From Candidatus Diapherotrites archaeon CG10_big_fil_rev_8_21_14_0_10_31_34 (GTDB lineage Archaea; Iainarchaeota; Iainarchaeia; Iainarchaeales; 1-14-0-10-31-34), in contig PFAI01000017.1 of the NCBI GenBank assembly GCA_002763225.1, forward strand, positions 9,155 through 31,599: DNA of 22,445 bases, in the 5' to 3' direction. The notes beneath the pieces were generated by a model that ran no database searches, had not been told where the DNA came from, and was given only the letters and a program-made list of their open reading frames with translations. The position numbers and the translations under genes were made by a program. Of this stretch, positions 444 through 19,506 are shown piece after piece (position 1 is the first letter of the stretch; each line of letters starts with the position of its first letter).

Positions 444-451
444 TTTAAAAA
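444..451 (+). promoter_or_regulatory. Putative TATA box for the tRNA-Arg gene
   Basis: TTTAAAAA about 43 nt upstream of the mature tRNA 5' end, in the divergent intergenic region. Confidence 0.45.
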
Positions 452-468
452 GCTTTAAGGCTTTCTTT

Positions 469-491
469 GTGCTTAAACGGCGAAACGTTTA
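469..491 (+). repeat. Dispersed hairpin motif, copy 1 (GTGCTTAAACG-GCGAAA-CGTTTA)
   Basis: 469-490 matches the reverse complement of 17819-17840 at 21/22 nt. Stem TAAACG/CGTTTA with loop GCGAAA. Confidence 0.85.
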
Positions 492-493
492 TT

Positions 494-567
494 GGACTCG
501 TGGCGCAACTGGATAGCGCAGCCCGCTTCGGACGGGCAGGTTGGGGGTTCGAATCCCTCCGAGTTCA
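494..567 (+). tRNA. tRNA-Arg(UCG), intronless, CCA not encoded
   Basis: Cloverleaf: acceptor GGACTCG/CGAGTTC plus A73, D-stem GCGC/GCGC with the A20 Arg identity base, anticodon stem GCCCG/CGGGC with loop CT-TCG-GA, T-arm GGGGG-TTCGAAT-CCCTC. Confidence 0.97.
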
Positions 568-16281: not shown

Positions 16282-17787
16282 TCAGTCAATCAGGCTTTTT
16301 CCAGTCATTTCTTTTGGTTTTTTTATTTCAAGCAGTTCAAGCATTGTTGGCGCAACATCAATTAATTCTGCTTCTTTTTTTAACTTTGCTTTTTTTAGTT
16401 TTTCTTCGTTTGAAATTAAAATAAACGGAACTTTATTTGTTGTATGTGCAGGGCATTTTTTTCCGTTTTCATAAAACATTTGTTCTGCGTTTCCATGATC
16501 AGAAATAATTATTACTGCCCCTTTTTTTTCCAGCACTGATTCAACTATTCCCCCTATGCAGTTATCAACTGTCTGAATTGCTTTTACTACTGCATCAATT
16601 TTTCCTGAATGGCCCACTAAATCAGCATTAGCAAAGTTTACAATAATTACATCAAACTTGTTTTTTTCTATTTCCTCTAAAACTTTTTCTTTTACTTCTA
16701 TTGCACTCATCTCAGGTTTTAAATCATATGAAGGCACTTTAGGAGAATTAACTAAAATTCTTTCTTCGCTTTTATTTGGTTTTTCTTCCTGGCTGTTAAA
16801 AAAGAAAGTTACATGAGCATATTTTTCTGTTTCTGCAACCCTTAACTGTTTTAAACCATTTTCTGCTAAAACTTTTCCTAAATTGTTTTTCACTTTTGTT
16901 TGTTCAAAAGCTATTTTTGCTTTAATGTTTTTGTCATATCTTGTCATGCAGACAAAATTTACTTTTGGTGCATTAAACTTTTTTTCAGTAAAACATTTAG
17001 TTAACTGTCTGCTCCTGTCAGACCTGAAATTAAAGAAAATTACTGCATCATTTTTTTCAATTAATCCTTTTTCGTTCAACAAAATTGGTTTAACATAATA
17101 GTCTGTTTCTTCTCCTCTTTTATATGCATTTTCTATTGCCTGTAAAACATTGTTTTCCTTGAATCCTTTTCCTTTTGTTAAAAGCCTTAATGCCTGTTCT
17201 GTTCTATCCCAGTTATTGTCTCTGTCCATTGAATAATATCTTCCAATCATTGAAGCAATTTCTCCCACGCCAATTTCTTTAATTTTTTCCTGCAGTTTTT
17301 TCAGGTATTTTCCTGCTGACCTTTCAGGGACATCTCTTCCATCCAAAAAACAGTGAACAAAAACTTTTTTTGCATTCACTTTTTTTGCCATTTCCAGTAA
17401 TGCATTCAAATGCCTTGTGGTTGAGTGAACTCCTTCATCTGATAATAATCCCATTAAATGAATTTTTTTTCCTTGTTTTTTTGCTTTTTTCATTGCTTCT
17501 AGTAAAACTTTATTTTCAAAAAAACTTCCTTTTTTTATTTCATTATTTATCAGCATTAACGGCTGGAATACAATTCTTCCTGCTCCGATATGTAAATGTC
17601 CTACTTCAGAGTTTCCTTGTGTTTTTTCTGGCAGTCCAACGTTTTTTCCAGAGCACTTTAATTCTGTGTGAGGAAATTCTTTCAGATAATTCAAAAAGTT
17701 TTTTGGCTGAGCTAAATAAACTGCATTTCCTGTTGTTTTTTCTGATATTCCCCATCCATCCATTATAATTAAAGTCAATGGCTTCAT
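16282..17787 (-). CDS. gpmI: 2,3-bisphosphoglycerate-independent phosphoglycerate mutase (bacterial type)
   Basis: MKPLTLIIMDGWG, GNSEVGH, FLDGRD, GRYYSMDRD, FNFRSDR, AETEKYAHVTFFF, NADLVGH, SDHGNAE, AHTT. An alternative in-frame start lies at 17898. Confidence 0.96.
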   Translation of the reverse strand: MKPLTLIIMDGWGISEKTTGNAVYLAQPKNFLNYLKEFPHTELKCSGKNVGLPEKTQGNSEVGHLHIGAGRIVFQPLMLINNEIKKGSFFENKVLLEAMKKAKKQGKKIHLMGLLSDEGVHSTTRHLNALLEMAKKVNAKKVFVHCFLDGRDVPERSAGKYLKKLQEKIKEIGVGEIASMIGRYYSMDRDNNWDRTEQALRLLTKGKGFKENNVLQAIENAYKRGEETDYYVKPILLNEKGLIEKNDAVIFFNFRSDRSRQLTKCFTEKKFNAPKVNFVCMTRYDKNIKAKIAFEQTKVKNNLGKVLAENGLKQLRVAETEKYAHVTFFFNSQEEKPNKSEERILVNSPKVPSYDLKPEMSAIEVKEKVLEEIEKNKFDVIIVNFANADLVGHSGKIDAVVKAIQTVDNCIGGIVESVLEKKGAVIIISDHGNAEQMFYENGKKCPAHTTNKVPFILISNEEKLKKAKLKKEAELIDVAPTMLELLEIKKPKEMTGKSLID

Positions 17788-17789
17788 TT

Positions 17790-17880
17790 TACTACCCGCT
17801 TCCGTGCGGGTGTAACGCAAACGTTTCGCCGTTTGAGCACGATGTAGTATCTTCGCTTTGCTCAGCCCTGCTTTCCTGCT
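17790..17880 (-). other. GC-rich multi-hairpin element (structured RNA leader or REP-like element) containing hairpin motif copy 2
   Basis: 49/90 G+C over 17791-17880 in very AT-rich surroundings. Stems at 17835-17863 (GAGCA..CGA/TCG-TGCTC), 17818-17835 (CAAACG-GCGAAA-CGTTTG) and 17794-17811 (ACCCGC-ACGGAA-GCGGGT). Confidence 0.7.
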
Positions 17881-17894
17881 TTTCCTTTTTTTTT

Positions 17895-18260
17895 TCATCT
17901 GACTACCTCTATTTCTGTTTCTTTTCCTTTTCTGTCAAATCCTTTTAGGTTGTCTAAATTAAATGGCCAGCAAATTATTAAGTGTATTTCGCCTAAAGCA
18001 GAAAAAACTTTTAGGTCTCCTTGAGAGGGATTATTGTTGTTGCTTGGATGAGAGTGAATTGTTCCAACAATGCTTTTGTCAAATGGAATCAAATCTGTTC
18101 TGATTGAAGAAAAGTTTTTTCCGTACACTGCTGGAAAAATCACTAATTCAGTTATTTCGTTTTCTTTATTCCTTCCCAGCATTGAAATGAATTCATCTGG
18201 ATAAACGCTTTTTGCTGCCAAAGTAATTGATTCAATTACCTGTTCTTTTATCTTAATCAT
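17895..18260 (-). CDS. JAMM/MPN+ (Mov34) metalloprotease-domain protein
   Basis: Glu in YPDEF plus HSH-x7-S-x2-D (HSHPSNNNNPSQGD). ATG 18260 overlaps the flippase stop by 8 nt. Confidence 0.9.
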   Translation of the reverse strand: MIKIKEQVIESITLAAKSVYPDEFISMLGRNKENEITELVIFPAVYGKNFSSIRTDLIPFDKSIVGTIHSHPSNNNNPSQGDLKVFSALGEIHLIICWPFNLDNLKGFDRKGKETEIEVVR

Positions 18261-19506
18261 TGCTTTTCTCACTTTTCTTTTTTAAGAACACTATTCTAAA
18301 AACATTTATCCCACAAATTATTGACCCGACAAAAAAACTAATGCCTGTTGCTATTGAAGCTCCTTTTATTCCAATCACAGGGATTAACAAAAAATTTAGA
18401 ATTACTGAAACAACCAAAACAATGACTGAGATTAATGCTGTTTCTTTTTCTTTGTTCATTGCTATTAAAACCACACAGAAAATGTAAAACAAAGAAACAA
18501 ATATTGAGCTGATTGCAAGCCAAAACAAAGATTCAGAGGCTAAAATAAACTCATTTCCGAAAAAAATTTTAAGGATTTGTTTGCTAAAAAGAGATAGAAT
18601 AATGGATAGGGGTAAAATAAAAATTATAAAATATTTTAATGATTTTTTAAGATGCATTTTTAACTCATTTTTTTTATTGTTTGAAAAAGATTCAGAAATG
18701 ATAGGAAATAATGCACCAGCAAGTGCCATAGTTAAATAATAAGGAAGTCTGCTTGTTTGTAGTGCAGCATTATATAATCCTGTCAAACCGTTTTCTATTA
18801 GTAATGCTTTTACTGAGAACAAACCAAAAGTGAAAGCACTTTCAAACAAAAAACTAAATACAGTTATAGGAATTGCTAATTTTAATATTTTTAAGTATTC
18901 AAAAGATTTTTTTGCTTTATTTTTTTCAGATAAATAAGCCCCCATTACAATTGCTGCAAGTGGAGCTAATGCAAATCCAATTATTGCTCCAAAAAGTGAA
19001 AACCCTGACAAAACCAAAAATATTATTGTAGCAAATTTTGTAATAGAATAGGAAATGGTTACAAGAGATTGTTTGTTATACTTCTGCAACCCATTAAAGT
19101 ACCCTAAAAAAACAGGATAAAGAAAGAAAATTGGGATCATAATAGAACTTATTTTTATATAGAGAGCAATTGAAGAATCATTTAATCCTATTGCAATTAA
19201 ATCAGCGCAAAGATAATAAACTATGAAAACAAGAACCCCAATAAATAAATTTAATTTAATTCCACTTTTTTTAATTGATTCTGCATTATTCTTTTTTTGG
19301 GATATTAATAGGCTTATTGCACCTTGGCTTCCACTAATAAAAAGTATGGATATTAATGAAACCAAAGAAATAGTTATTGCATAGATTCCATAATTTGCTG
19401 CCCCAAGAGTTTTGGCCAAGAAAATGTTTACTCCATAACCAGAAAGCATGTAAACAATGTTAGCTATAAAAAGCGAAAACGTTCCAAATAAAAGAATTCT
19501 TTTCAT
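18253..19506 (-). CDS. Oligosaccharide/polysaccharide flippase (Wzx/PST, MOP superfamily)
   Basis: About 12 TM; LAKTLGAANYGIY, GLYNAA, FPIIS, LNFLLIPVIGIKGASIAT. Start likely MKRILL at 19506 (alternative 19554). Confidence 0.9.
   Translation of the reverse strand: MKRILLFGTFSLFIANIVYMLSGYGVNIFLAKTLGAANYGIYAITISLVSLISILFISGSQGAISLLISQKKNNAESIKKSGIKLNLFIGVLVFIVYYLCADLIAIGLNDSSIALYIKISSIMIPIFFLYPVFLGYFNGLQKYNKQSLVTISYSITKFATIIFLVLSGFSLFGAIIGFALAPLAAIVMGAYLSEKNKAKKSFEYLKILKLAIPITVFSFLFESAFTFGLFSVKALLIENGLTGLYNAALQTSRLPYYLTMALAGALFPIISESFSNNKKNELKMHLKKSLKYFIIFILPLSIILSLFSKQILKIFFGNEFILASESLFWLAISSIFVSLFYIFCVVLIAMNKEKETALISVIVLVVSVILNFLLIPVIGIKGASIATGISFFVGSIICGINVFRIVFLKKKSEKSND

Follow-up and report, generated by a model that had tools for sequence, protein, structure and literature searches.

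In bacteria, small palindromic repeats have been described in detail. The Rickettsia palindromic elements are tolerated in frame inside protein genes or at the start of protein genes, and they are not known to abut tRNA ends. Single-strand transposition of the IS200/IS605 type is not known to make target duplications. The REP and REPIN units with a GTAG tag are described together with RAYT transposases and BIME mosaics in the accessible parts of two papers (PMC2817692, PMC3116915). The CGTC-tagged REP superfamily of bacteria has an unpaired terminal tag CGTC (or TGTC/CCTC), an 8–9 bp stem starting with A/T pairs, a loop of 4–5 nt and a CCA-like 3' tail (Di Nocera, De Gregorio and Rocco, 2013, PMC3733652). 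According to the available passages of that paper, the hosts belong to five bacterial phyla and archaea appear in the reference list only, RPE-4 and RPE-6 are equated with CGTC families, RPE-1 lies inside a gene, and adjacency to tRNA gene ends is not reported.

In this study, we analysed a 22-nt hairpin motif that occurs twice in the window (the whole stretch of DNA under analysis, 22,445 nucleotides). The 22-mer is the commonest subfamily of a wider family in which the CGT tag is unpaired, the 6-bp stem varies and the loop reads RCGRAA. The unit consists of a 5' unpaired tag (consensus AYCGTKMY; CGTGCTY in the 22-mer subfamily), a 6-bp stem which is free in sequence and paired, and an RCGRAA hexaloop (GCGAAA in the 22-mer). 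We consider that the 22-mer represents the commonest subfamily of a small non-autonomous mobile hairpin of REP/BIME-like kind, and that both window copies are passengers, not signals. The probability that we give to this explanation as a whole is about 0.7. The best reading of the family is that of an archaeal mobile hairpin of REP/BIME-like kind which carries a tag and is associated with tRNA genes strictly end-on.

As far as the accessible text of PMC3733652 goes, the CGTC-tagged REP superfamily is the described kind that the archaeal family most resembles. In both, the unit is a short palindrome of which one end carries an unpaired tag beginning with CGT, the stems are heterogeneous within one family, units also occur within genes, and the repeats flank no dedicated transposase gene. 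The two differ in that the fourth base of the archaeal tag is T or G in 34 of 41 hairpins and C in 2 of 41, two more bases are unpaired, the stem has 6 bp instead of 8–9, and the loop is the 6-nt RCGRAA instead of 4–5 nt. The archaeal family has no CCA-like tail, and its conservation stops right after the stem. The archaeal host, the habit of standing at tRNA ends and the long target duplications are further differences from the superfamily as described in those passages.

The family also shares with GTAG REP/REPIN units, so far as the parts of those papers at hand describe them, the high-copy extragenic hairpin, the conserved 5' tag and the lineage-specific families, and with BIMEs the mosaic arrays in which different palindromic units stand in both orientations with short linkers. 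However, the archaeal tags (AYCGTKMY; CGTGCTY) are not GTAG, five of the six genomes of the genus have no Y1_Tnp gene, and the Y1_Tnp genes of the sixth are unlinked to the motif. Thus, membership in the GTAG REP/REPIN-RAYT system fails on the tag and on the transposase. Membership among MITEs was also rejected, because there are no terminal inverted repeats and the duplications of 14, 18, 20 and 22 nt have not one fixed length. Some of the archaeal insertions carry target duplications of 14–22 nt, which transposition of the IS200/IS605 type is not known to make. The 37-codon in-frame insertion at gpmI recalls the Rickettsia palindromic elements, from which the archaeal hairpin differs in sequence, size and host. 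No description of an archaeal tagged-hairpin family, or of any such family against tRNA gene ends, was found by full-text searches of the literature, subscription-only papers aside.

The two copies in the window

The features of the window are listed in Table 1. Copy 1 (GTGCTTAAACGGCGAAACGTTT, 469–490 of the plus strand) and copy 2 (GTGCTCAAACGGCGAAACGTTT, 17819–17840 of the minus strand) were recovered at the same coordinates as in the earlier note, with the 21 of 22 matching positions reported there. When the window was dinucleotide-shuffled, 0 of 100 shuffles gave any match at three or fewer mismatches. The sole difference between the copies is T474 versus C17835, and it is offset by A491 versus G17818. 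Because the change is compensated, each window hairpin has a 6-bp stem around GCGAAA. The compensated mismatch at the stem-closing pair, the invariant loop and the sense orientation of both copies relative to the downstream gene, all of which had been pointed out from the letters of the window, hold. The distance between copy 1 and the tRNA-Arg gene had been given as 2–3 nt; it is 2 nt, since the hairpin ends at 491 and the tRNA match of Rfam begins at 494. At the window, the tRNA boundary of ARAGORN is about 1 nt wider than that of Rfam.

Table 1. Coordinates of the hairpins, the insertion and the neighbouring genes in the window
Feature	Position	Strand	Details
Small neighbour hairpin AAAGCT/GGCTTT	449..464	+	Fold; congeners without the insertion
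Tagged hairpin, copy 1	463..491	+	Degenerate head TTCTTTGTGCTT; stem 474-479/486-491; loop GCGAAA 480-485
tRNA-Arg(TCG) gene	494..567	+	Rfam RF00005, 61.9 bits; ARAGORN 493-568
gpmI (cofactor-independent phosphoglycerate mutase)	16282..17787	-	ATG conserved in congeners; Pfam iPGM_N and Metalloenzyme
111-nt mosaic hairpin insertion with flanking 14-nt direct repeats	17783..17907	-	Repeat search; congener alignment
Second hairpin of the wider tagged family	17794..17817	-	CGTTAC + ACCCGC + ACGGAA + GCGGGT; G000:C24:26948-26971; fold
Tagged hairpin, copy 2	17818..17846	-	Head TACATCGTGCT; stem 17835-17830/17823-17818; loop 17829-17824
Prok-JAB gene, upstream of gpmI	17895..18272	-	Stop overlaps ATG 17898, ATGA arrangement

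The covariance model R1 of the wider family (see below) scores copy 1 at 32.1 bits (G000:C24:9619-9647, where G000 is the genome under study) and copy 2 at 38.2 bits (G000:C24:26970-26998). The folding energy of the segment 440–495 is modest (-9.3 kcal/mol, z = -0.68), and the structural evidence at the window hairpin is the covariation, not the folding energy. A TTTATATA box is located at 402-409, upstream of copy 1, and copy 1 is probably part of the leader of pre-tRNA-Arg. According to the comparison with the congeners, the 5' arm of the small neighbour hairpin is pre-existing flank and its 3' arm lies within an insertion of about 35 nt. The pairing AAAGC/GCTTT at copy 1 suggested that hairpin stems are copied from the flanking target; this idea was not borne out at the filled/empty site L027/C46.

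Copy 2 ends 30 nt upstream of the conserved gpmI ATG (17787), and the second hairpin of the wider family is directly downstream of it. Copy 2 also lies within an ORF that is open in frame from the upstream ATG 17898. It belongs either to the 5' region of gpmI or to an N-terminal extension of 37 residues. The genes near the two copies are archaeal in type (aEF-1-beta fragment, Prok-JAB protein, iPGM).

Distribution and pairing of the core motif

The genome G000 comprises 1,044,951 bases in 65 contigs (81% complete, 30.8% G+C). The 16-nt core AAACGGCGAAACGTTT has 16 copies in it, of which 13 are exact and 3 have one mismatch, and the reversed control pattern of the 16-mer has 0 occurrences. The core is present in all five congeners (G001–G005, 1–12 copies each), is not found in 3/3 other genera of the family, and gives 1–3 matches at one mismatch or fewer in each of three more distant genomes. 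In a search of 185,579 species genomes, the exact 22-mer was found in 24 stretches of six MAGs, each of which is labelled as a DPANN-type archaeon; viral contigs gave 0 matches. A 23-mer version matched 59 metagenome stretches, which represent 46 distinct copies. The genome-wide pattern search proposed in the earlier note thus brought many more copies than the two of the window.

For the analysis of pairing, 46 distinct in-genus copies were gathered by the 16-mer alone, so the closing pair is outside the selection. In these copies, conservation begins 12 nt upstream (TGCNTCGTGCTY) and extends to the base just after CGTTT, and the next position is at background. The closing pair is a Watson-Crick pair in 41 of the 46 copies (C-G 23, T-A 16, G-C 1, A-T 1). 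With shuffled 3' partners, the mean was 20.1 Watson-Crick pairs and the maximum 33, and 0 of 10,000 shuffles reached 41. Among the 46 distinct metagenome copies, the closing pair is Watson-Crick in 45. As repeat copies share ancestry, these pair counts are counts of sequences, not of independent events. The number of genomic copies, the presence in all congeners and the closing pair bear out the suggestion of a dispersed element selected for its structure.

The wider family

Sites in G000 were selected by the CGT tag at the right distance and the RCGRAA loop only, and 47 sites were obtained. All six stem positions are paired in 31 of them, five in 8 and four in 4. The mirror-pattern control gave 42 sites, none with more than three of six pairs. 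The 41 perfect hairpins in G000 have 21 different stems, and the stem is exactly 6 bp in 34 of them. Their loops are GCGAAA (18), ACGGAA (11), ACGAAA (7) and GCGGAA (5), and the CGT of the tag is kept in 35–39 of the 41.

The model R1 was built from 62 members and applied to 41 genomes with a cut-off of E <= 0.01. It gave 42 matches in G000 and 37, 7, 31, 28 and 16 in the five congeners. Of the 35 more distant genomes, 6 gave 1–7 matches and 29 gave none, so that 12 of the 41 genomes are positive overall. The distant matches which were inspected are genuine tagged hairpins, several of them against or inside tRNA genes. The R1 alignment (A1) is 97.6% paired, a value which is circular because the rows were picked for one stem mismatch or fewer, and it was not used as evidence; the non-circular support for pairing is the closing pair of the 46 copies and the test on 47 sites.

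The units are found singly, as in the case of copy 1, or as the terminal module of 75–125-nt mosaics of other small hairpins, as in the case of copy 2. Within the arrays, hairpins of one class are found in either orientation (loops TTTAT/ATAAA and TGAAA/TTTCA). Near-identical composites of four hairpins, about 100 nt long, are present at two loci of G004. Therefore, whole mosaics move as units.

Polarity at tRNA genes

A tRNA gene is located on the CGTTT side in 25 of the 46 in-genus copies. Sixteen of these are at tRNA 5' ends in the sense orientation, and nine are at tRNA 3' ends in the antisense orientation. The distance to the ARAGORN boundary is within -2 to +1 nt in 23 of the 25, and the other two stand at 30 and 50 nt, behind another hairpin. 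On the tag side, a tRNA within 60 nt was found in 0 of the 46 copies. Among the 16 copies of G000, 8 have a tRNA on the CGTTT side, and the 39 tRNA calls have oriented flanks that amount to about 0.25% of the sequence. For the wider family in G000, 10 of 41 members abut a tRNA by the 3' end and 0 by the 5' side, and 2 of 41 are inside tRNA intron calls. The studied core copies lie outside the mature tRNA, at tRNA ends and protein-gene junctions, not at bulge-helix-bulge splice sites. The same polarity was observed in the 18 of 46 metagenome copies that abut called tRNAs. Together with the pair counts, which show that the stem is kept paired, these results demonstrate that the unit turns its 3' end to the outer end of a tRNA gene, at the 5' as well as at the 3' end of the gene.

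Of the 16 family members located in tandem intergenic spacers, 12 have the antisense and 4 the sense orientation relative to the genes; 6 members are in convergent spacers and 5 in divergent ones. These counts of ORF context use crude ORF calls, and most of the cases 'inside ORF' are ORFs running through tRNA genes or hairpin arrays. The orientation is thus mixed, both at tRNA genes and in tandem spacers, and by the criterion set in the earlier note a DNA repeat is favoured over an RNA leader.

ARAGORN called tRNAs with long introns of 21–254 nt on many contigs of G000, and one implausible call with 2,878 nt. The number of genes called by ARAGORN in G000 was 26 or 39, depending on the linear/circular setting.

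Filled and empty sites

The site in front of tRNA-Arg(TCG) was compared among the congeners. In G001, G002 and G005, a conserved CTGTAGTATTA...TTTAAAA block is followed by the tRNA after 4–7 nt, and a hairpin is absent. In G003, another short sequence is inserted. The leader in G004 (L055, G004:C4, ~1945-2066) contains a 125-nt array of about five hairpins, in which the core is inverted and distal to the tRNA. G000 has about 35 extra nt, including copy 1.

At the gpmI junction of G001–G004, the JAB stop overlaps the gpmI start in a single junction with no spacer or insert. In G005 (L047, G005:C8, ~1880-1985), about 115 nt of unrelated AT-rich sequence are inserted at the junction, and hairpin modules are absent from them; the JAB/gpmI junction was hit independently. 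The gpmI copy is missing in 5/5 congeners. In the window, the flanking repeats 17894-17907 and 17783-17796 are identical at 12 of 14 positions with a spacing of 111, and they correspond to the duplicated junction between the JAB stop and the gpmI start. The insert consists of at least three hairpin modules including copy 2. Its 111 nt are 37 codons, in frame and free of stops, so the gpmI ORF runs from the old coupled ATG 17898. The extended ORF has 538 aa, the predicted 37-residue N-terminal extension is very basic, and the Pfam Metalloenzyme match begins at residue 39. An 8-nt tandem duplication (AAAGCAGG twice, minus strand) is present at 17867-17882 in the A-rich left part of the insertion.

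In the reverse comparison, G000 has no core at 7/7 aligned sites where a congener has one, and three of these sites hold other hairpin modules. Judged from the alignments, both window copies are recent, lineage-specific insertions, and for neither tRNA-Arg nor gpmI does the 22-mer represent a conserved leader or regulatory motif. The same alignments indicate that copies come and go between congeneric species.

Flanking repeats were also found at other loci. At L039, an 18-nt perfect duplication of a unique target flanks the insertion, again at a gene junction. At G000:C13:9735-9905, a hairpin array abuts the intact tRNA-Ile(GAT) gene, and the final 22 nt of this gene are perfectly duplicated beyond the array; the duplication needs caution because a 9-N assembly gap lies within the array. 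A 75-nt element of two hairpins with the same design, located in a distant genome of the order (L117, G017:C2, ~1425-1550), is flanked by a perfect 20-nt direct repeat, GGACACTTTATTGAAAATGG. As read from such repeats, some insertions duplicate 14–22 nt of the target. A systematic direct-repeat search found no exact flanking repeat of 10 nt or longer in 42 of the 46 copies, and since the arrays are repetitive, long repeats were also found at some control offsets. Inverted repeats of 8 nt or longer were absent from the 111-nt insert, from copy 1 and from the surroundings of both, and the core is at one end only of the mosaic elements.

Searches for enzymes and RNA families

Searches of G000, at its 81% completeness, gave 0 matches for Y1_Tnp (PF01797; RAYT/IS200 TnpA) and 0 matches each for the TnpB zinc-ribbon, Cas1 and RVT_1. 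Y1_Tnp was also not found in G001, G002, G003 and G005. G004 alone in the genus has four IS200-like Y1_Tnp ORFs (L059-L062; contigs C29, C123, C100 and C30), two of which are cut off at contig ends, and no core motif was found within about 1.5 kb of these ORFs. Over 41 genomes, Y1_Tnp showed no link with the hairpin (3 of 12 genomes with the hairpin, 6 of 29 without). The HUH/RAYT transposase flanked by copies, for which the earlier note had proposed to look, did not turn up.

At the gathering score of Rfam, only the tRNA was matched. At E up to 1, nothing was matched at copy 2, and copy 1 gave two sub-threshold matches to bacterial sRNAs with 15–18 bits. In the earlier note the hairpin had not been recognised as a known family, and no Rfam family matches it. 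A conserved pre-tRNA leader or known RNA family was rejected as a candidate on three grounds: the copies are missing at the orthologous sites of congeners, the orientation is mixed, and Rfam gives no match.

The archaeal RNase P RNA is encoded in G000. Its match (G000:C47:1688-2071) is 384 nt long versus a model of 288 positions, and it may carry insertions.

Mechanism and alternative explanations

A possible course of insertion can be outlined. The unit may be recognised as a single-stranded DNA hairpin by a putative trans-acting enzyme, which would insert it next to another stable stem of the same strand, on the 5' side of the foot of that stem. A tRNA gene would fold as a cloverleaf on either strand, and because of this the mirror-image polarity at tRNA 5' and 3' ends, as well as the growth of hairpin arrays, would be expected. 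The tRNA flanks would be tolerated sites, because RNase P and tRNase Z would trim the attached sequence. If the hairpin were a sequence-specific RNA signal, its presence in one sense at tRNA 5' ends and in the other at 3' ends would be unexpected, and placement at the DNA level 5' of a folded stem would fit exactly. We tentatively extend this to a structure-homing mobile hairpin of DPANN archaea without the known small-repeat transposases, in which a tagged ssDNA hairpin of 6 bp and 6 nt would be inserted at the cloverleaf foot on an exposed strand, widely staggered cuts of 14–22 nt would duplicate the target, and repeated rounds would build arrays and perhaps long tRNA introns. We consider this extended version clearly less likely than not.

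The hairpin might instead serve the host as an RNA element. It would then be part of the transcribed leaders and trailers of pre-tRNAs and of the 5' regions of mRNAs, and selection would keep it as a signal for processing, stability or protein binding. The unit of 22–29 nt is letter-perfect across species and the flanking genes are merely 71–85% identical. The core also stands before tRNA-Gly(TCC) in G001, G004, G005 and a seventh MAG, where the 22-mer is intact and the neighbour modules differ. Such conservation and retention would fit a host function as well as ongoing spread. The closing pair covaries, and the position of copy 1 downstream of the TTTATATA box would place it in a leader. Against these points, the orthologous tRNA-Arg and gpmI sites of the congeners are without the element, nine of the 25 tRNA-adjacent copies would give the complementary RNA, and the copies in tandem spacers are mostly antisense to the genes (12/16). 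In the one-mismatch stems (n = 12), A:C occurs 7 times, G:T 2 times and others 3 times, so that there is no preference for sense-strand wobble; the wobble test for the functional strand is not significant. There is no sign that sense RNA is the selected form; if anything it is the complement, and the numbers are small. Since RNase P RNA is present, no substitute processing signal is needed, and no Rfam family emerges even at the relaxed threshold. We consider the RNA element unlikely. Among the three options offered in the earlier note, the REP-like non-autonomous repeat thus gives the best fit, and the pre-tRNA leader or shared 5' signal finds no support as a general role, given the empty sites in the congeners and the antisense copies.

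The palindromic half-sites AAACG/CGTTT with a fixed 6-bp spacer could also be bound as double-stranded DNA by a dimeric protein, for instance a factor that acts at tRNA genes as a boundary or as a regulator, and mirror polarity around tRNA genes is natural at the DNA level. A reader of half-sites would conserve the arms; here the arms vary (21 stems) and the spacer/loop and the one-sided tag are conserved, which is the reverse. As the compensated changes indicate pairing within one strand and the sites are gained and lost between congeners, we regard such a site as quite improbable. Still less probable are scars or attachment sites of integrating elements that target tRNAs. The copies near tRNAs and the 22-nt duplication of the tRNA-Ile 3' part spanning one array are in favour of them. 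However, the inserts are merely about 35–125 nt long, tRNA 5' ends are commoner than 3' ends (16 versus 9), the flanking repeats differ at every site, and viral contigs gave no match. A chance match or an assembly artefact is hardly credible in view of the shuffled windows, none of which gave a match. Dozens of copies are carried by six other, independent assemblies, and copy 2 with identical flanks is found in an independent metagenome contig (L121), which may share the sample of the window.

Implications

According to the reading as a mobile REP/BIME-like hairpin, ORFs such as the 538-aa gpmI may have extensions derived from repeats, which is a warning for annotation. The hairpin is also a practical marker of genome turnover among closely related uncultured archaea. 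The strict end-on polarity at both tRNA ends provides a handle for finding a new mode of moving DNA, and the absent genes for Y1, TnpB, Cas1 and reverse transcriptase, together with the long and variable target duplications, provide further handles on it. The hairpin family bears on the origin of the unusually long tRNA leaders and introns of DPANN archaea.
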